DNA of 64,000 nt, from the IMG/VR virus record IMGVR_UViG_3300042387_002331; one strand, written 5' to 3'. Made by a program: the position numbers and the translations under genes. The notes under the pieces are model-generated. The model was given only the letters and a program-made list of their open reading frames with translations. It made no database searches and was not told the origin of the DNA. Below are positions 13,638 to 51,884 of the stretch, piece after piece. Position 1 is the stretch's first letter; each line of letters opens with the position of its first letter. The stretch is from a virus.

Positions 13638-13664
13638 AGCCTGGCGAAAGCCAGGCTTTTTTTT
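13638..13664 (+). terminator. Rho-independent terminator after the major capsid gene
   Basis: agcctggc-gaaa-gccaggct followed by a T run. Confidence 0.9.
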
Positions 13665-13698
13665 GTTTTTTTTAATATTTATCAACAAATATAGTTAT

Positions 13699-14397
13699 AT
13701 GAATGATTTTAATAGAACTGCCGAAGCGCAGGAAGTTTTCAAAGCAAAACGCAAACCAAAAGGCCCTATAAAATTTAACATTCAATTGAATGAAGAACAA
13801 AAATTGGCTAAATCTAAAATTTTAACTAATACTGTAACTATATTACGTGGTAAAGCAGGATCAGGTAAATCTTTATTAGCAGCAAACGTTGCTCTTGACA
13901 TGTTGTTCAATAAAGAAATTGAAAAGATCATTATCACTCGACCTACTGTAGTAGCTGGACAAGATATTGGTTTCCTCCCAGGTGATGTCAATGAAAAATT
14001 AGCTCCGTTTACTGCTCCTGTGTATGAAAACATGCATCGTTTATATAGCAAAGAAAAAATTGAAAAATGCATACAAGAAGGTGAAATAGAAATTGTACCT
14101 GTTTCATTTATGCGAGGTAGAAACTTTACAGATTGTCTAGTTGTAGTAGATGAAGCACAAAACTTAACTGATAATCAAACAGAACTACTTTTAACCCGTA
14201 TTTGCTCAGGTAGTAAAATGATATTTTGTGGAGACGGTGCTCAAATCGATTTACGAGATAAAAAAACATCAGGATTTGATGTTGTATGTAAACATATGAA
14301 AGAGGTACCTGGATTCGAAGTAATTACACTAGAAAGAAACCATAGACATCCAATAGTAGATGATATTTTAGAAGTATACAAATCTTTCAGAGGTTAA
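13699..14397 (+). CDS. phoH: PhoH-family ATPase
   Basis: GKAGSGKS, ITRP, GFLPG, MRGRNF, VDEAQN, GDGAQID and RNHRHP. ATG 13699 preferred over the TTG at 13663, which lies in the terminator tail. Confidence 0.92.
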   Translation: MNDFNRTAEAQEVFKAKRKPKGPIKFNIQLNEEQKLAKSKILTNTVTILRGKAGSGKSLLAANVALDMLFNKEIEKIIITRPTVVAGQDIGFLPGDVNEKLAPFTAPVYENMHRLYSKEKIEKCIQEGEIEIVPVSFMRGRNFTDCLVVVDEAQNLTDNQTELLLTRICSGSKMIFCGDGAQIDLRDKKTSGFDVVCKHMKEVPGFEVITLERNHRHPIVDDILEVYKSFRG

Positions 14398-31774: not shown

Positions 31775-33541
31775 ATGGCAGAAACAATTGTATCACCTGG
31801 TGTACTAGCAATAGAAAATGACCAATCTTTTATCACTCAAGCTCCTGTACAAGCGGGTGCTGCAATCATAGGACCAACAGTTAAAGGTAAAGTAGGTATT
31901 CCTACATTAGTTACAACATTTGGTGAATATCAAAATAAATTTGGAACTACATTTTTAAGTGGAAGCCAAACATACACATATCTTACCTCTATTTCAGCTT
32001 TTAATTACTTTAATAGTGGGGGAACTTCATTATTGGTTACACGTGTGGTTAGTGGTAGTACAACTACTGATTGGACTCCTGCAACTTCCTCATTTATTTC
32101 TGCATCTGCTCATGCTGCTGGTGCTCCTTATAACACAGATGTGTTTGTTTTAGAAACAATTTCTGAAGGAGAACTAATGAACAATACTGGTCCTACAGGA
32201 TCTAATGGAACATTATTAAGTGGCTCAACAAATAATTTTAGATGGCAAATAATCTCCCCAGATATTAATGCAGGAACATTTACTTTATTAATTAGACAAG
32301 GAAATGATACTACAACAACTCCATCTATTTTAGAAACTTGGAGTAATTTATCGTTAGATCCATTTGCTTCAAATTATGTTGAAAAAGTAATAGGTAACCA
32401 AGTTGAAGTAGTCACAAATGATCCATCTACAGGTGAATATTACATCCAACTTTCAGGAAGCTTTCCTAATAAATCAGCATACGTTAGAGTTAAACAAGTA
32501 AACCAAACTACCCCAGGATATTTTGATAATAATGGTGTTCCTAAAAACCAATATACTGGTTCTTTACCTCTTATTGGTAGTGGATCATTTGGAGATGGAA
32601 AGGGAAGTAACATTCCTACATTTGCCGCTGGCGCATATTATGAAAATATTTCAAATACCAATATCCAAGGTTTAACAGCTAATAACTATACAGAATCTAT
32701 TTCTTTATTAGCTAATGCTGATGCATTTAATTATAACTTTATTACTGCTCCCGGATTAATAGGAGATAGTACAAATTTTGCTCTTCATTACCCCGTTGTT
32801 CAACAATTAATCACAATGGTTCAAAATAGAGCAGATGCAATGGCTGTAGTTGATGTTGTAGGATATAACTCAAACATTATTCCTGTAACAGCAGCTGCAA
32901 ATTCTTGGGATACATCATATGCTGCAACATATTGGCCTTGGTTAAAAACAATCGACCCTAATTCAGGACAACAAGTTTGGACCCCAGCTTCAACAATTGT
33001 ACCTAGTGTATATGCATTTAATGACAATGTAGCTTATCCTTGGTTTGCACCTGCTGGTATTAACAGAGGCCTTATGACAACAGTTATTCAAACCGAAAGA
33101 ACCTTAACTCAAGGAAATAGAGATTTACTTTATCAAAACAATATAAACCCAATTGCAACTTTTCCAGGATCTGGAGTTGTAGTATTTGGACAAAAAACAT
33201 TACAGAAGAAAAAAAGTGCTTTAGATCGTGTAAACGTTAGACGTTTATTAATTGAACTCAAAAGTTATATTTCCCAAATAGGTGATACTTTTGTGTTTGA
33301 ACAAAATGATGCAATTACAAGAAATAATTTTGTAGCAGCCATCAACCCATATTTATCATCCGTTCAACAACAACAAGGTTTAACAGCTTTTAAAGTTATT
33401 ATGGATGAATCAAACAATCCTCCTTCAGTAGTAGACCAAAATCAACTAATAGGTCAAATTTATTTACAACCTACTAGAACTGCTGAATTTATTATATTAG
33501 ACTTTAACATATTACCTACAGGTGCAACCTTCCCTCAGTAG
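31775..33541 (+). CDS. Tail sheath protein 1 (gp18-like)
   Basis: SPGV, PWFAPAGINRG, GQKTLQ, LDRVNVRRL and LQPTRTAEFI. Confidence 0.93.
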   Translation: MAETIVSPGVLAIENDQSFITQAPVQAGAAIIGPTVKGKVGIPTLVTTFGEYQNKFGTTFLSGSQTYTYLTSISAFNYFNSGGTSLLVTRVVSGSTTTDWTPATSSFISASAHAAGAPYNTDVFVLETISEGELMNNTGPTGSNGTLLSGSTNNFRWQIISPDINAGTFTLLIRQGNDTTTTPSILETWSNLSLDPFASNYVEKVIGNQVEVVTNDPSTGEYYIQLSGSFPNKSAYVRVKQVNQTTPGYFDNNGVPKNQYTGSLPLIGSGSFGDGKGSNIPTFAAGAYYENISNTNIQGLTANNYTESISLLANADAFNYNFITAPGLIGDSTNFALHYPVVQQLITMVQNRADAMAVVDVVGYNSNIIPVTAAANSWDTSYAATYWPWLKTIDPNSGQQVWTPASTIVPSVYAFNDNVAYPWFAPAGINRGLMTTVIQTERTLTQGNRDLLYQNNINPIATFPGSGVVVFGQKTLQKKKSALDRVNVRRLLIELKSYISQIGDTFVFEQNDAITRNNFVAAINPYLSSVQQQQGLTAFKVIMDESNNPPSVVDQNQLIGQIYLQPTRTAEFIILDFNILPTGATFPQ

Positions 33542-33587: not shown

Positions 33588-35291
33588 ATGGCAAATTTCA
33601 CAACTTCTCCTGGAGTAGCAATTAGCGAAATAGATAACACCTTTTTAACCGGACAACCGGTTCAAGCAGGTGCCGCTATTATAGGACCAACAGTTAAAGG
33701 TCCTTATGAAAAACCCACTCTAGTAACTTCTTATTCAGATTTCCAAATGTTGTTTGGAGATTCTTTTATTAGTGGTGGTAATTCTTATTCATATTTAACT
33801 TCAATTGCTGCTTACAATTATTTCAATTATGGAGGAACTTCATTATTAGTAGCCCGAGTAGCTACAGGTTCTTATACTTCTGCTACAAGTTCTAAAATTG
33901 AAAATTACTTTACCTCAGAATCATTTACTTTAGAAACCATTTCAGAAGGAATCATCATGAACAATTCAGGTTCAGGAGCTTCAGGTTCTTTACTTTTAGG
34001 AACTAAGGATAATGTAAGATGGGAAATTACCAATTCAAATACTGGATCAGGTACATTTAACGTATTAATTAGACGTGGAAATGATACTCAAAATAATAAA
34101 ACTATTCTTGAAGCTTGGAATAATGTAACATTAGATCCAAATTCAAATCGTTATATTGCTAGAGTAATTGGTGATCAAAAATTACAATACAATTCTTCAG
34201 CTAATCAAATGGACTTATCTGGAAGTTATCCAAACAACTCAAGATATGTACGTGTAAAAGCTGTAAATTATCCAACACCAAACTATTTTGATGCAAACGG
34301 AATTGCAGTTTCTGCATATACTGCTTCAATTCCAGTAAATGGAAGTGGTTCTTTAGATGGTGCTTTTGGAGGTGCTACTGGAACAACAGGTAGTACTATT
34401 AATTTATATGATAATATCTCAACAAACACTCAAGGTGTAATGGGATATGATTATAACAACATGATTTCATTATTAGGTAATCCTGAAGCATATCAATATA
34501 ATTTATTGTTTACTCCTGGTTTATTAAACGATACTCATACTGCTCAAATTACTAACCTTATTACTAACACAACTGCTAGAGGTGATAGTATGTTAGTATT
34601 TGATTTAACTGATTTTAACAGTGTAATTGGAGATGCAGTAACACAAGCTCAAACTCGTGATACTTCATATGCCGCTTCATATTGGCCTTGGGTTCGTATT
34701 ATTGACCCAGCAACCGGAAAACATGTTTGGTCACCTGCTTCAACAGTAATCCCAGGCGTATATGCATTTAATGATAAAGTATCTGCTCCATGGTTTGCAC
34801 CTGCAGGTATTAATCGTGGTGGTTTAAGTACAGTATTACAAGCACAATATAAATTAACTCAAGCAAATAGAGATACTTTATATGCAAATAATGTTAACCC
34901 AATTGCAACATTACCTAAACAAGGTGTTGTAGTATACGGACAGAAAACATTACAAAAAGCTCAATCTGCTTTAGATCGTGTAAATGTACGTCGTTTGATG
35001 ATTGAATTAAAAAGTTACATTCGTCAAATTGCTGATACTATTGTATTTGAACAAAATACTATTCAAACTAGAACTTCATTTATATCAAGAGTTAACCCAT
35101 ATTTAGAAGCTATCCAACAAAAACAAGGATTATATGCTTTTAAAGTAGTAATGGATGATTCAAATAACGGACCAGCTGTAATTGATCAAAACCAATTAGT
35201 AGGACAAATTTACATCCAACCAACACGCACAGCTGAATTTATTTCTTTGGATTTCATCTTGTTACCAACAGGAGCAGAATTCCCAGGATAA
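33588..35291 (+). CDS. Tail sheath protein 2 (paralogue)
   Basis: Same motifs as sheath 1; own late promoter at 33566. Confidence 0.93.
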   Translation: MANFTTSPGVAISEIDNTFLTGQPVQAGAAIIGPTVKGPYEKPTLVTSYSDFQMLFGDSFISGGNSYSYLTSIAAYNYFNYGGTSLLVARVATGSYTSATSSKIENYFTSESFTLETISEGIIMNNSGSGASGSLLLGTKDNVRWEITNSNTGSGTFNVLIRRGNDTQNNKTILEAWNNVTLDPNSNRYIARVIGDQKLQYNSSANQMDLSGSYPNNSRYVRVKAVNYPTPNYFDANGIAVSAYTASIPVNGSGSLDGAFGGATGTTGSTINLYDNISTNTQGVMGYDYNNMISLLGNPEAYQYNLLFTPGLLNDTHTAQITNLITNTTARGDSMLVFDLTDFNSVIGDAVTQAQTRDTSYAASYWPWVRIIDPATGKHVWSPASTVIPGVYAFNDKVSAPWFAPAGINRGGLSTVLQAQYKLTQANRDTLYANNVNPIATLPKQGVVVYGQKTLQKAQSALDRVNVRRLMIELKSYIRQIADTIVFEQNTIQTRTSFISRVNPYLEAIQQKQGLYAFKVVMDDSNNGPAVIDQNQLVGQIYIQPTRTAEFISLDFILLPTGAEFPG

Positions 35292-35850: not shown

Positions 35851-35877
35851 AAAGCTCCAAAGAAATTTGGGGCTTTT
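35851..35877 (+). terminator. Rho-independent terminator after the tube gene
   Basis: aaagctccaaa-gaaa-tttggggcttt (one G-U pair). Confidence 0.7.
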
Positions 35878-35897
35878 ATTTTCTTTTAATATACTAA
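35867..35897 (+). promoter_or_regulatory. Bacteroidota sigma70-like promoter (TTGG-N19-TATACTAA)
   Basis: Same spacing also at 49249, 51000, 54001 and 59083. Confidence 0.55.
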
Positions 35898-35901
35898 AGC
35901 T

Positions 35902-38361
35902 ATGAAAACAATTAAAGTACTTTTATTTACGTTATTGACTAGTTTTATTTATAGTCAATATTGCCCATTTTTAGGGCCCGATCAATATTTACCTTGTGGT
36001 ACAAACTCAACAACTTTAACCGCAGATTTAAGTCAATGTATTGCAGGTAATAACCCTAATCAAACAACAAATTATAGTGTAGCTAACATACCCTATGTGC
36101 CTCAAATTAATGCTGGTACTTTAGTTCCTTTAGGGGATGATGTTCAATCGAATCCTTATAATATAGGATTTACATTTTGTTTTTATGGTCAAACATATAC
36201 ACAATTTAGGATCGGTTCAAATGGTTGGATTTCATTAGGTCCTGGAGGTCAACCTACAAATTTTACTTCAATGCAGATTCCAACTGCAAATGCTGCCGCA
36301 CCTAAAAATTGCATTATGGGTCCTTGGCAAGATTGGAACCCTGGAGCCGGTGGACAAATTAGATTCCAAACATCAGGTATAGCACCATGTAGAAAATTAA
36401 CCGTAAGTTGGATTGGTGTCCCAATGTTTTCATGTATTAATTTACAGGGAACTTTTCATATCGTATTATATGAATCTACTAATGTAATAGAAAATCACAT
36501 AGCAAATAAACCAAACTGTCCTCAATGGGCCGGAGGAACAGCTGTTCAAGGTATTCATAATACAGCAGGAACACAAGCAGTAACTGTTCCCGGAAGAAAT
36601 TCTACCCAATGGACAACCACAAATAATGCTTGGCGATGGACACCTAGTGGACCCGTTGTTACTCCAACATTAACTTGGTATCAAGTAGGTAATCCTGTTC
36701 CAATTGCAACAGGTGTGAACCAAATTACCGTGACTCCCCCTGTTCAAGGAGCTTATTACACATGTCATTTAGAATACCCTACTTGTAATGCAGGATGGTC
36801 AACTTGTAATGCTGGAGTTGGGTTAGGTCCTGATACAGTGTTTGTACAACCGGGTCCACCAAATTTAAATCAACCAAATTTTGTAAACACAAATCCTTTA
36901 TGTAATGGAGATTGTAACGGATCTATTACAGTAAATCCTACAAATGGTACAGCTCCATTTAATTATGCTTGGGTTACTTTACAAACTACCCCAACAATAA
37001 ACAATTTATGTGCAGGAAACTATATAGTAACAATTACCGATGCAAATAACTGTACTGTAACAGCAAATACCACATTAATTGATCCTCCTGTTTTAGCAGT
37101 ACCTTTAATGGCTGCAACTAATCCTGTTTGTTTTGGAGATTGTAACGGTACAGCAACAGCAAACCCAACTGATGGTATTGCTCCATATACTTATTTATGG
37201 GGGGATGGGCAAACAAATCAAACTGCGATTAATTTATGTGCTGGAACGTATAGTGTAACAGTAACAGATGCAAATGGATGTCCTGCTTCAAATACTATTG
37301 CTTTAGTAAATCCTCCAATAGTCGTAGTAGGAAGTATTACTTCATTAGATACAATATGCTACTTATCCTCTAACGAAACATACTCAGTACCAAGTTTAGG
37401 CGCAGGATATTCTTATAATTGGTCTAGTATAGGAAATATTACCTCAGGTCAAGGAACTAATAATATCACAGTAGATTGGTCTACATTACCTGCAGGGTTT
37501 ATACCTGGAGCTGTTAACGTTATAGCGATAAATCAGTTTGGTTGTACAAGTTTACCACAAGCAGTTGATGTTCATATTTTAAACATTTTACCCACGATAG
37601 ACTCGATTGCTCCACTATGTGACTATAGTAATTGTGTAACCTTAACTGGAATCCCTATTGGAGGAATATTTACAGGAAATGGAATAAATGGAAATACATT
37701 TTGCCCTTCACCTTTAATTGCAGGAAATAATACGATAACATATACTTATGCACAATCAAATTGTACTTTTGATACTACTTGCCAAATAACTGTTTACCCT
37801 AGACCTGCTATTTCACAAATTCAAAATGATTTAGGAAACTTAACATCTGAATTTATAGAATTGTGTGAAGGAGATAGTATAGGTAGAATTTATAATGCAA
37901 CCGCTTTAGGTGGAGGTAATGTAGTATGGATTTTAAACCAAGATAGTATTGCAAACCCAACATTACCCATTGCATGGAATAGCTTTGGAACATTTACCTT
38001 TTCAGCTGTAACATATGAAAACGGATGTGTATCTTATCCTGTATCATTTGCAACTACCATCCAAAGATGCCCTGAAGAATTAATTTACATTCCAAACACA
38101 TTTACTCCAGATGGAGATGAAAATAACAATACTTGGTCCCCAGTATTTACTTCAGGTTTTGATCCTGCTGATTTCCATTTAACCGTTTATAATAGATGGG
38201 GAGAATTAGTATTTGAAAGTTATAACAGTGCTGCTTCTTGGGATGGAACATACAACAATACAAAATGTCAAGATGGAGTTTATACTTGGGTTATAGTTTA
38301 TGGAGATAAAAATACAGATAAAGAAACATTAATTAAAGGAAACGTTACCCTTATTAGATAG
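35902..38361 (+). CDS. Secreted SprB-repeat protein with a T9SS type-B (gliding-motility-associated/CHU_C) C-terminal sorting domain
   Basis: Signal peptide ending YS-Q; two CxGDCNG...GxAPxxYxW...NLCAGxYxVTxTDANxC repeats; CTD IYIPNTFTPDGD...YNRWGELVF...WDGT...GVY...KGNVTLIR. Confidence 0.9.
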   Translation: MKTIKVLLFTLLTSFIYSQYCPFLGPDQYLPCGTNSTTLTADLSQCIAGNNPNQTTNYSVANIPYVPQINAGTLVPLGDDVQSNPYNIGFTFCFYGQTYTQFRIGSNGWISLGPGGQPTNFTSMQIPTANAAAPKNCIMGPWQDWNPGAGGQIRFQTSGIAPCRKLTVSWIGVPMFSCINLQGTFHIVLYESTNVIENHIANKPNCPQWAGGTAVQGIHNTAGTQAVTVPGRNSTQWTTTNNAWRWTPSGPVVTPTLTWYQVGNPVPIATGVNQITVTPPVQGAYYTCHLEYPTCNAGWSTCNAGVGLGPDTVFVQPGPPNLNQPNFVNTNPLCNGDCNGSITVNPTNGTAPFNYAWVTLQTTPTINNLCAGNYIVTITDANNCTVTANTTLIDPPVLAVPLMAATNPVCFGDCNGTATANPTDGIAPYTYLWGDGQTNQTAINLCAGTYSVTVTDANGCPASNTIALVNPPIVVVGSITSLDTICYLSSNETYSVPSLGAGYSYNWSSIGNITSGQGTNNITVDWSTLPAGFIPGAVNVIAINQFGCTSLPQAVDVHILNILPTIDSIAPLCDYSNCVTLTGIPIGGIFTGNGINGNTFCPSPLIAGNNTITYTYAQSNCTFDTTCQITVYPRPAISQIQNDLGNLTSEFIELCEGDSIGRIYNATALGGGNVVWILNQDSIANPTLPIAWNSFGTFTFSAVTYENGCVSYPVSFATTIQRCPEELIYIPNTFTPDGDENNNTWSPVFTSGFDPADFHLTVYNRWGELVFESYNSAASWDGTYNNTKCQDGVYTWVIVYGDKNTDKETLIKGNVTLIR

Positions 38362-38379
38362 TACAATATTTATAATAGT

Positions 38380-38751
38380 ATGAAACTGAACCACTTACGT
38401 ACTTTAGTTAAAGAGGAGCTTAATAAGCGACTAAACGAAGAATACCAAGACAAATTTAAAATGGTTGGTATGCTTATAACCAACATTAAAAAACGCCCAC
38501 AAAAAGAAATATTTTCTGATATCCGATCAATCCCAGGAGTAACCGTAGCATCTGTTAAAGAACCTATGGAATATAGTGAACAAGACACAGAAAAATTCCA
38601 GTCAATTATGACTGTAAAAGTTGATGGTCATCCTTGGATTACAAAAGGTGGTTTTGATCGTACAAAAATGGAAGATATTCGTAAAGCAATATTAAAGGTA
38701 GAAGGAGTTTTATCATATAATGTAAATCCTGATAATATTTCTTCTCTTTAA
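38380..38751 (+). CDS. Hypothetical protein
   Basis: Late promoter at 38366; LRTLVKEEL motif; DIRSIPGVT. Confidence 0.55.
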   Translation: MKLNHLRTLVKEELNKRLNEEYQDKFKMVGMLITNIKKRPQKEIFSDIRSIPGVTVASVKEPMEYSEQDTEKFQSIMTVKVDGHPWITKGGFDRTKMEDIRKAILKVEGVLSYNVNPDNISSL

Positions 38752-51059: not shown

Positions 51060-51884
51060 ATGAATCTCGATGCAATCAAGAAAAAACTTGAATCAATGCA
51101 AAAGACCTCTAATGGAGGATCTAACAATTCAAGTAACGTCAAGCGTTTTAAACCAACAATTGGCAAACAAACAATCCGTATTGTACCTTTTAAATACAAT
51201 AAGGAATTTCCATTTACGGAAATGAAATTTTATTACGGAATTGGAAGCCGTAAAGTAATTGCTTCTCCTTTAAACTGGGGTGAAAAAGATCCAATTGCAG
51301 AATTTGCAAAACAACTTCGTGGAACAAACGACAAAGAAAATTGGCGTTTAGCTAAAAAATTAGATCCGAAAACTCGTATCTATGCTCCTGTAATTGTACG
51401 TGGTGAAGAAGCTGAAGGTGTTCAAATGTGGGAATTTGGTAAAGAAATTTACGAAGCGTTCTTACAAATGGCTGCTGATGAAGAAGTAGGTGATTTTACA
51501 GATGTTATGTCTGGTAGAGACATTAAGTTAGTTACTGTAGGACCTGAATCAACAGGAACCGCTTACAATAAAACAACTATTGCTCCGTCAATGAAAATGT
51601 CTGCATTGTCTGAAGATTCTAAACAAATTGAAAAATGGTTAGAGGAACAAGAAAATCCAAAAGATATGTACAAGCCACTTCCATTTGATACAATCAAACA
51701 AGCGCTTCAAGAGTGGTTAAACCCTGAGGCAGATGAAGAAGAAGTTTTGGCAGAGGTTGAAGATGAAGTAAAAGAAGAACCAAAATCAAATTACAGCTTA
51801 TCCACCAAACCAGCAGCTAAAAAATCAAAAGCAGAAGCATTTGATGATTTGTTTGGTGAAGATGATGATGATGCTCCATTTTAA
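51060..51884 (+). CDS. Single-stranded DNA-binding protein (gp32-like)
   Basis: IRIVP, WEFGKEIY and DFTDVMSGRDI; acidic tail DDDDAPF. Confidence 0.75.
   Translation: MNLDAIKKKLESMQKTSNGGSNNSSNVKRFKPTIGKQTIRIVPFKYNKEFPFTEMKFYYGIGSRKVIASPLNWGEKDPIAEFAKQLRGTNDKENWRLAKKLDPKTRIYAPVIVRGEEAEGVQMWEFGKEIYEAFLQMAADEEVGDFTDVMSGRDIKLVTVGPESTGTAYNKTTIAPSMKMSALSEDSKQIEKWLEEQENPKDMYKPLPFDTIKQALQEWLNPEADEEEVLAEVEDEVKEEPKSNYSLSTKPAAKKSKAEAFDDLFGEDDDDAPF

Follow-up and report, generated by a model that had tools for sequence, protein, structure and literature searches.

The window analysed here, a 64,000-nucleotide stretch of viral DNA, comes from a phage, with genes for TerL, portal, MCP, two sheath proteins, tube, PolA, UvsX, DnaB and RNR. 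It probably represents a T4-like, lytic phage of freshwater Bacteroidota, and the host, assigned on homologue taxonomy only, is probably a member of the Crocinitomicaceae or of other Flavobacteriales. A megablast of the 31-45 kb part of the window against the phage collection gave no match. Within the tail module, an ORF has two tail sheath genes and one for the tail tube upstream; its downstream neighbour is a T4-baseplate/hub-like gene. Among the cellular homologues listed for this ORF, practically all come from MAGs labelled Bacteroidota, with two labelled Akkermansia. The Cys-rich protein of 819 residues that the initial annotation had placed here corresponds to a real ORF at 35902-38361. 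The locus comprises the following features:

35851-35886, plus strand: intrinsic-terminator-like hairpin (11-bp stem, 35851-35876) and U-tract after the tube gene (-13.7 kcal/mol, z -3.5)
35887-35901, plus strand: short A/T box TAATATACTAAAGCT directly 5′ of the ATG, whose best match to ATATTTATA(A/T) has 3 mismatches
35902-38361, plus strand: the ORF, 819 aa with 30 Cys
35902-35955, plus strand: signal peptide, residues 1-18, with a predicted signal peptidase I cut before Gln19 (Bacteroidota Q-rule)
35956-36855, plus strand: Cys-rich N-terminal head domain, residues 19-318, with 11 invariant Cys in the alignment
36856-37311, plus strand: stalk of two SprB-type repeats, residues ~319-470 (Pfam PF13573, 6.7e-17)
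37327-37551, plus strand: PKD-like domain, residues 476-550 (PKD_6, PF19408, 4e-09, 37.1 bits, cut-off 25)
37552-38085, plus strand: beta-rich middle region without a domain match, residues 551-728
38086-38361, plus strand: type-B T9SS C-terminal sorting domain (CTD), residues 729-819 and stop codon
38366-38375, plus strand: late-type motif ATATTTATAA of the phage, intact, belonging to the next gene (38380-38751) and marking the right edge of the insert

The initial annotation had credited the protein with a Sec signal with Gln at +1, two SprB-type repeats and a complete type-B CTD, and had asked for an HMM check; all three elements held up, the repeats through the Pfam search. The N-terminus reads MKTIKVLLFTLLTSFIYS up to the predicted cut and QYCP after it, with a basic n-region, a 12-residue hydrophobic core and YS preceding the Gln at +1. 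This signal peptide was called by eye and by conservation, Gln19 being invariant across 17 diverse homologues, and the Q-rule of Bacteroidota signal peptidase I sites has been described (PMC5837995). At the other end, Pfam CHU_C (PF13585) matches residues 729-807 with 60.3 bits (cut-off 27), and the NCBIfam model for the type B sorting domain, TIGR04131, matches with 48 bits against a cut-off of 35, from position 2 to position 85 of its 85. Collectively, these elements support the prediction that the 819-aa protein has all the export signals expected of a type-B cargo of the Bacteroidota T9SS. Phage homologues carry 0, 1 or 2 SprB repeats as a result of whole-repeat insertions or deletions, and the part that diverges most between distant phage copies is residues 551-728 (38-49% identity).

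Using a custom HMM built from 20 PorP genes, we found no PorP/SprF gene in the window, where the initial annotation had recognised none, or in 57 viral loci; furthermore, PF11751 was absent from the five phage records searched, four of which are at least 93% complete. The bacterial homologues have no adjacent PorP genes either, and the five homologue-holding MAGs that were searched contain 10-22 PorP/SprF genes each. Judged by its gene neighbourhood, the phage protein is an “orphan” among predicted cargos, with no adjacent shuttle of the SprB/SprF type. [quoted passage not shown] 2025 (PMC12618676), are exported via one common shuttle, Fjoh_1677; unlike the phage gene, these orphans are bacterial, and the comparison made here is one of CTD class. 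Because type-B CTDs pair specifically with their shuttles (PMC12618676), export of the phage protein would depend on a host shuttle.

The protein was also considered as an orthologue of SprB, and this identity was rejected given its mere two repeats in 819 aa, its phage tail-module context and a head of another family. SprB itself is giant, carries many repeats and is encoded beside sprF. The phage protein resembles F. johnsoniae SprB in its SprB-type repeats and type-B CTD, but differs from it in size, in repeat number, in its head and in having no sprF. As far as the domain matches go, repeat type and CTD class are all that the two have in common. The SprB/SprF pairing is treated in PMC12618676.

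Phage-encoded T9SS cargo has a precedent in the “Cryophage” proteins, which are type-A examples (Bellas et al. 2020, Nat Commun, PMC7468147). As in those phages, the gene described here ends in a T9SS sorting domain and belongs to the flexible, accessory part of the pan-genome; there too, hijacking of the host T9SS is presumed and roles in superinfection or competition have been suggested. However, the “Cryophage” cargos have a type-A CTD joined to enzyme or PA14 domains and vary strongly from one phage variant to another, whereas the present protein is type-B and adhesin-like, with a strongly conserved head, and occurs in many phage lineages.

Comparison of 63 related tail loci supported the earlier view of the gene as an insert in the tail module: the tube gene is directly followed by the next tail gene in 49 of the 63, six carry the gene at this position, and the remaining eight hold other inserts. 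The gene is missing from the relatives L158 and L174, whose tube proteins are 97% and 84% identical, respectively, and in which hairpin and motif are intact. Other alleles and several unrelated inserts occupy the same junction in relatives, a pattern that marks the tube junction as an insertion hot spot. The ORF is an accessory (moron-like) cassette, present or absent between close relatives at a fixed junction and flanked by transcription signals. An assembly chimera, which the initial annotation had named as a danger, does not account for this arrangement, since more than 20 contigs, obtained from different samples, show the order of tube, gene and o38380.

The same protein of ~815 aa is found in at least 57 viral contigs, although some of the IMG/VR carrier contigs may be misclassified and one is flagged as a provirus. 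Near-complete phages of 158-436 kb are among the carriers, and there the gene lies in unrelated neighbourhoods; at distant viral loci it adjoins GroEL, ThyA, a sigma factor or peptidases. Phage records of 634 and 642 kb match the protein as well. In a tree of the N-domain, obtained by a quick search on this single domain, all 40 viral rows group in a single clade (SH-aLRT 99) that is nested within those of Bacteroidota. The tree topology places the phage copies as a single, apparently host-derived clade within a large Bacteroidota family.

The nearest cellular relative is a bacterial orthologue from a Crocinitomicaceae MAG (L058:8001-10448), which the head-domain tree places within the phage clade and which has the same length and architecture as the phage protein, with 54% identity overall and 70-71% in the head. 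It is a chromosomal gene: it sits among the housekeeping genes eno, carA, rplQ, rpoA, rpsD and secY, unlike the phage copy, and differs from it in GC3 (0.369 versus 0.159, with a phage mean of 0.178). A PhoH homologue near some bacterial orthologues proved to be simply the bacterial phoH. The codon usage of the ORF is phage-like, the reading frame is intact in every full-length copy seen, and dN/dS values of 0.17 overall, 0.135 in the head and 0.20 in the CTD indicate purifying selection.

The head domain belongs to a very large, uncharacterised Bacteroidota family (8127 cluster representatives at E<=1e-3). Its identity is 75% between distant phages; with bacterial orthologues it is 58-72%, and with chromosomal ones 70-72%. 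Conserved charged residues include D61, D62, D126, R146, E173, K185 and R214 (domain numbering). An AF2 model reached a pLDDT of 91.5, against 64.6 for an earlier model from a shallow alignment, and Foldseek of the better model against the PDB returned nothing at E<=1e-3. A wide VIA fold search gave a best Z of 7.0, confined to an Ig-like part of ~80 residues, and the BFVD fold search returned uncharacterised phage proteins only; phmmer of the protein against PDB sequences found no match. A NIDO identity (PF06119), an Atlas lead scored 0.86, is doubtful: two of 46 head-family members match the model weakly (E 1.2e-3), the head in the window does not match it, and neither do the five orthologue-holding genomes.

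The sequence before the gene bears on its transcription. Two upstream observations of the initial annotation stand, namely the tube terminator and the missing late motif. The hairpin and U-tract are kept in 22 relatives, and the hairpin is also present in the insert-free L158 and L174, a distribution that makes it ancestral to the locus rather than specific to the insert. Most structural genes, the next gene among them, have the late motif ATATTTATAA in front of them, whereas the ORF does not. The claimed promoter of the form TTGG-N19-TATACTAA, common to the replication genes, did not survive: the exact string has a single match in the window, TATACTAA by itself is found 7 times against 5.8 expected, close relatives show TATATTAA or TATGTTAA in its place, and the TTGG is part of the terminator stem, occurring in the gene-less L158 too. 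Early expression from a host-type promoter, as claimed before, is not supported either, since a scan for Bacteroidota sigma-A sites (TTTG-N18-22-TAnnTTTG) on the plus strand of the window found no site, the -33 element falls in the hairpin and the -7 box is phage-motif-like.

In the cassettes of other phages, the ATATTTATA(A/T) motif is found with 0-1 mismatch 11-13 nt before the ATG, and with no more than one mismatch it precedes the gene in 13 of 49 loci compared to a 3% background. The box before the ATG in the window looks like a remnant of this phage motif, shortened and decayed, and is at most a putative promoter; 5′ of the gene, no recognisable promoter was found in the window's lineage. 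Transcription most likely results from read-through of the tube terminator or from the weakened phage-type motif, which would place it with or after the late genes and not early.

These observations bear on the proposal that the gene is read early from a host-type promoter and that its product excludes superinfecting phages, either because it competes with SprB for the gliding/T9SS machinery or because it masks a receptor. We consider this improbable. The proposal would fit a gene that lacks the late motif and sits after a terminator, and one other TTGG-N19-TATATTAA site does exist, ahead of a replication-region gene at 51060; moreover, flavobacterial resistance to tailed phages commonly maps to T9SS/gliding genes (PMC12781566), so that surface remodelling could block adsorption. 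However, the TTGG is hairpin stem that persists where the gene is missing, the letters of the box vary among close relatives, sigma-A consensus sites were not found on the plus strand of the window, and the phage's own late-type motif stands before the copies of other phages. Competition by the CTD alone would, furthermore, leave the identity of the head among phages and with bacteria unexplained.

Release of the protein to the medium or on vesicles, as a soluble binder or an enzyme acting on an external polymer, has been proposed for the “Cryophage” type-A cargo enzymes and is quite improbable here. T9SS cargos may be secreted or surface-attached (PMC12618676), phage-encoded T9SS enzymes are on record (PMC7468147), and the conserved charged residues of the head could form an active or metal site; yet no enzyme family was matched by sequence or fold, and a head-stalk-CTD build in which SprB and PKD repeats occur is the architecture of a surface adhesin. 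In addition, the type-B CTD proteins studied to date associate with PorP-like proteins for anchorage (PMC9143113).

The position between tube and baseplate genes could also suggest a virion component, either a decoration of the Hoc-like kind or an accessory fibre of the tail, with vestigial N- and C-terminal signals, and both the late-type motif before other phages' copies and a weak match to phrog_2973 (“Hoc-like head decoration”; residues 342-433, profile positions 128-232 of 310, 4.8e-08) would agree with this. But the PHROG match covers the SprB repeats only, the signal peptide, the Gln at +1, the many invariant Cys and the CTD, all under purifying selection, speak against it, and close relatives build the same tail without the gene. 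Large phages, moreover, hold it among non-structural genes, and a bacterium carries a full-length orthologue on its chromosome. From its sequence, the 819-aa protein is unlikely to be part of the virion, and such a decoration or fibre with vestigial signals is very improbable. A selfish or neutral passenger, that is, a piece of a host gene carried along at a recombination hot spot without function for the phage, would agree with the several unrelated inserts at the tube junction and with the lack of an evident promoter of its own in the window's lineage, but is hardly credible for an intact, phage-adapted ORF under purifying selection that many distinct phage lineages have kept as one clade.

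Taken together, we favour, with some confidence, the reading of the gene as a host-derived accessory cassette encoding an orphan type-B T9SS cargo that would be displayed on the surface, with a host-like binding function and late timing. On this account the infected cell probably displays a host-like binding protein supplied by the phage. In that cell the protein would undergo Sec export and cleavage by signal peptidase I, pass through the host T9SS, be handed over to a PorP/SprF-type shuttle provided in trans by the host, and be displayed at the cell surface with the head outward. The head would then perform the binding function of the host protein itself, so that the infected cell would keep or increase its attachment to a conserved ligand, such as a particle, a polymer or a neighbouring cell. 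As the head is the best-kept part of the protein and closely resembles its bacterial orthologues, the host binding function has most likely been retained; this conservation argues that selection keeps the binding by the head and not mere CTD-mediated competition.

A broader possibility, which we put forward tentatively and regard as doubtful, is that a single clade of type-B T9SS adhesins, spread through lytic freshwater Bacteroidota phages from T4-like to 400-kb ones, may act late in infection to re-program the infected cell's surface. In one version, infected cells would be glued to uninfected neighbours or particles and progeny would be released beside new hosts. In another, a T9SS-displayed receptor would be masked and neither progeny nor rivals would adsorb to the dying cell. 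A possible functional analogue is Llp of phage T5, a small phage-encoded lipoprotein that blocks a known receptor: in both cases a phage protein would be placed in the outer membrane or surface of the host during lytic growth.

These results correct the reading of the gene as one under an early host-type promoter, and they provide a testable case of a lytic phage altering the cell surface through the secretion system of its host. If true, late re-programming would mean that a phage exploits the gliding/T9SS surface apparatus in a way not known from experiment. The conserved phage clade of type-B T9SS cargo may serve as a marker for the host phylum, and it gives a handle on an uncharacterised head domain with more than 8000 sequence clusters that forms the tip of Bacteroidota surface proteins. 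Tailed phages usually recognise flavobacteria through T9SS/gliding surface proteins, on which abundant aquatic Bacteroidota also rely for attachment and polymer use.

The cargo gene between the tail tube and baseplate genes encodes a protein of the kind that the initial annotation had described, a Cys-rich product with a Sec signal followed by Gln, two SprB-type repeats and a complete type-B C-terminal sorting domain (CTD):

35902-38361, + strand: cargo gene, 819 aa, 30 Cys

Pfam matched two SprB repeats, a PKD-like domain and CHU_C, and the NCBIfam model of the type-B T9SS sorting domain, TIGR04131, matched end to end and above cut-off. The protein begins with a typical signal peptide ending YS-Q, and the Gln after YS, which the Bacteroidota Q-rule expects after the signal peptide (PMC5837995), is invariant in an alignment of 17 diverse homologues (17/17). 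Four parts stand out when the phage homologues are aligned. The head, about 300 residues long, has 11 invariant Cys; the stalk gains or loses whole SprB repeats, of which there are 0, 1 or 2; the middle region varies and the CTD is conserved. Compared with 11 close relatives, the dN/dS of the gene is 0.17 overall, with a lower value for the head (0.135) than for the CTD (0.20). Because one protein combines a signal peptide and the Q-rule Gln with many conserved Cys and a CTD under selection, its sequence points, as the initial annotation had supposed, to a surface protein exported by the host rather than a virion part.

Judged by its sequence, the window belongs to a T4-like phage. Genes for a terminase, a portal, a major head protein, two sheaths, a tube and baseplate-like proteins come first, and those for PolA, UvsX, ribonucleotide reductase (RNR) and a helicase resembling DnaB follow. 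At 52.9 kb, a related contig was estimated to be 32% complete, pointing to a genome size of about 165 kb. Also observed in the window were:

13663-14397: PhoH-like gene (PF02562, 4e-62), directly 3′ of the major head gene
31775-33541 and 33588-35291: tandem tail sheath paralogues, sharing about 55% identity
58032-58346, + strand: 104-aa protein with no Pfam match, beside RNR

Most relatives fetched by the tube protein have a single sheath match before the tube gene, whereas the window lineage has two. Homologues of the 104-aa protein (69-86% identity) adjoin a T9SS cargo gene in 12 distant large-phage loci:

L020, L021, L022, L023, L025-L027, L032-L034, L042 and L052: about 1 kb downstream of the cargo gene, opposite strand

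The order sheath, sheath, tube, cargo gene, o38380 (the next tail gene) and hub recurs in at least 22 contigs from different samples, which rules out the assembly chimera that had been raised beforehand as an objection. Of 80 loci fetched by the tube protein, 79 (L158-L236) were analysed and 63 had usable downstream sequence; the tube gene is directly followed by the next conserved tail gene in 49 of these 63, six carry the cargo gene at the junction (one as a split form) and eight carry other small inserts. On gene order, the cargo gene is an accessory cassette. Locus L158 lacks it even though its tube protein is 97% identical to that of the window: there, a hairpin and T-tract are followed immediately by TATATTTATAAC-CAT-ATG of o38380; in the window, what comes after this T-tract is TATAC-TAAAGCT-ATG of the insert, the complete ATATTTATAA returning past the insert's stop codon. 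Since hairpin and T-tract are also found in the insert-free L158, the terminator is, by this comparison, an old feature of the tube gene; the tube terminator reported upstream of the cargo gene is indeed present, but not as an insulator made for the insert.

At the same junction in locus L162 (3865-5630), three consecutive ORFs of 205, 187 and 191 aa replace the single 819-aa gene. All three start with a signal peptide of their own that ends YSQ; the first ORF ends P-I-N-H-N, the second P-I-Q-H-N, and only the third has a type-B CTD. The trio looks like an adhesin split into pieces, with I-x-H-N tails. Other relatives show the tube-to-baseplate junction to be a hot spot of insertion: their inserts there are small and unrelated, and encode proteins of 89-91 aa that have a hydrophobic helix at the N-terminus and also proteins of 80, 213 and 267 aa:

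L175:7605-7880, junction insert
L193:7605-7874, junction insert
L206:5270-5539, junction insert
L181:3359-4268, junction insert
L191:7622-8425, junction insert

The motif ATATTTATA(A/T) is sited upstream of genes in the window (20 on the + strand, 1 on the - strand) and likewise precedes genes in distant 270-290-kb phages (L020, L025, L029, L033), so one promoter type appears to be common to a broad group of Bacteroidota phages. For the cargo gene, the initial annotation had claimed an early host-type promoter shared with replication genes, TTGG-N19-TATACTAA. We found that this exact arrangement occurs once in the window, that TATACTAA alone is at chance frequency and that the TTGG is part of a hairpin stem. 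Upstream of the cargo gene in other phages, 11-13 nt from the ATG, lies a phage motif ATATTTATAT that is intact or has one mismatch (e.g. ...ACATATTTATATTAAAGG...ATG); this is so in 13 of 49 loci, compared with 3% of random 45-nt windows. Read by eye in the alignment, the ...AATATA(C/T)TAAAG... of the window lineage looks like that phage box minus about four bases. As, in addition, no Bacteroidota sigma-A-type site was found on the + strand of the window, early host-driven expression is unsupported. More likely, the cargo gene would be transcribed by read-through of the hairpin (-13.7 kcal/mol) or from the weakened phage motif. In L018 and L019, loci of a 158-kb phage group, the cargo gene is directly preceded, at about 40-110 nt, by a tRNA-like sequence (…GGTTCGAATCCC…), the order being putative tRNA-like sequence, hairpin, phage motif, cargo gene.

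The full cargo protein has more than 5600 protein matches, the best 120 being 713-822 aa long, and is encoded in at least 57 IMG/VR loci. Phage copies 45-64% identical to that of the window occupy quite different neighbourhoods: the gene adjoins tRNA, GroEL, ThyA and sigma factor genes in a complete 158-kb phage and M23 and NlpC/P60 peptidase genes in a 291-kb phage, and two phage records of 634 and 642 kb match too. Among the matches listed, cellular homologues come nearly all from Bacteroidota-labelled MAGs, mainly Crocinitomicaceae, Flavobacteriales and Sphingobacteriaceae, and two from MAGs labelled Akkermansia. A quick maximum-likelihood search on the head domain gathered all 40 viral rows into a single clade (SH-aLRT 99), within which lie two Crocinitomicaceae rows; the sister rows are Flavobacteriales and Bacteroidia. 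One of the two, L058, is truly chromosomal: its flanking genes are eno, carA, rplQ, rpoA, rpsD and secY, and its protein has the same architecture as the window's, at 54% identity. The GC3 of the phage cargo gene (0.159) fits the phage (0.178 +/- 0.044) and not the bacterial orthologue (0.369), so the gene has long resided in phages and has moved between phage lineages.

No PorP/SprF gene had been recognised in the window, and an HMM that we built found none there or in 57 viral loci. Five phage records, of which four are at least 93% complete, also had none. Bacterial genomes with an orthologue have 10-22 PorP/SprF copies each, none adjoining the orthologue in the genomes searched. Three “orphan” type-B cargos of F. 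johnsoniae use one shuttle encoded elsewhere (PMC12618676), and the phage cargo gene resembles them in having no adjacent PorP/SprF. Near-complete phages each have one or two type-B cargo genes, some with extra type-A ones; type-A T9SS tails were seen in large cargo-bearing phages, the open frames that encode them being 541 and 1350 aa long:

G002:C1:167659-167838, type-A tail in the phage genome record of L029
G005:C1:13703-13939, type-A tail in the phage genome record of L033

Earlier papers describe T9SS cargo encoded by phages as type-A CTD enzymes (PMC7468147) and mention such cargo close to the BACON proteins of crAss-like phages (PMC6949934). The window's cargo has a type-B CTD, and our literature search found no paper on this type-B family. 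Used alone as query, the head matched 8127 cluster representatives at E<=1e-3, in proteins of 213 to 4657 aa, some with many head copies; its usual partners are SprB, PKD or Ig_7 repeats and a CHU_C domain, with a type-A tail in a few. The AlphaFold model of the head, from a deeper alignment, is confident and beta-rich (pLDDT 91.5). A search of solved structures with this model gave no convincing match, BFVD returned unnamed phage proteins only, and a weak lead to NIDO did not hold up on checking.

Because the head is the best-conserved part of the protein and is 58-72% identical to bacterial orthologues, we think that the phage copy acts as the host protein does, binding a conserved ligand at the tip of the stalk. 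Superinfection exclusion by competition with SprB had been proposed, and such competition through the CTD alone seems less likely. For the phage, the benefit of this host-like binding may be attachment, aggregation, receptor masking or another.
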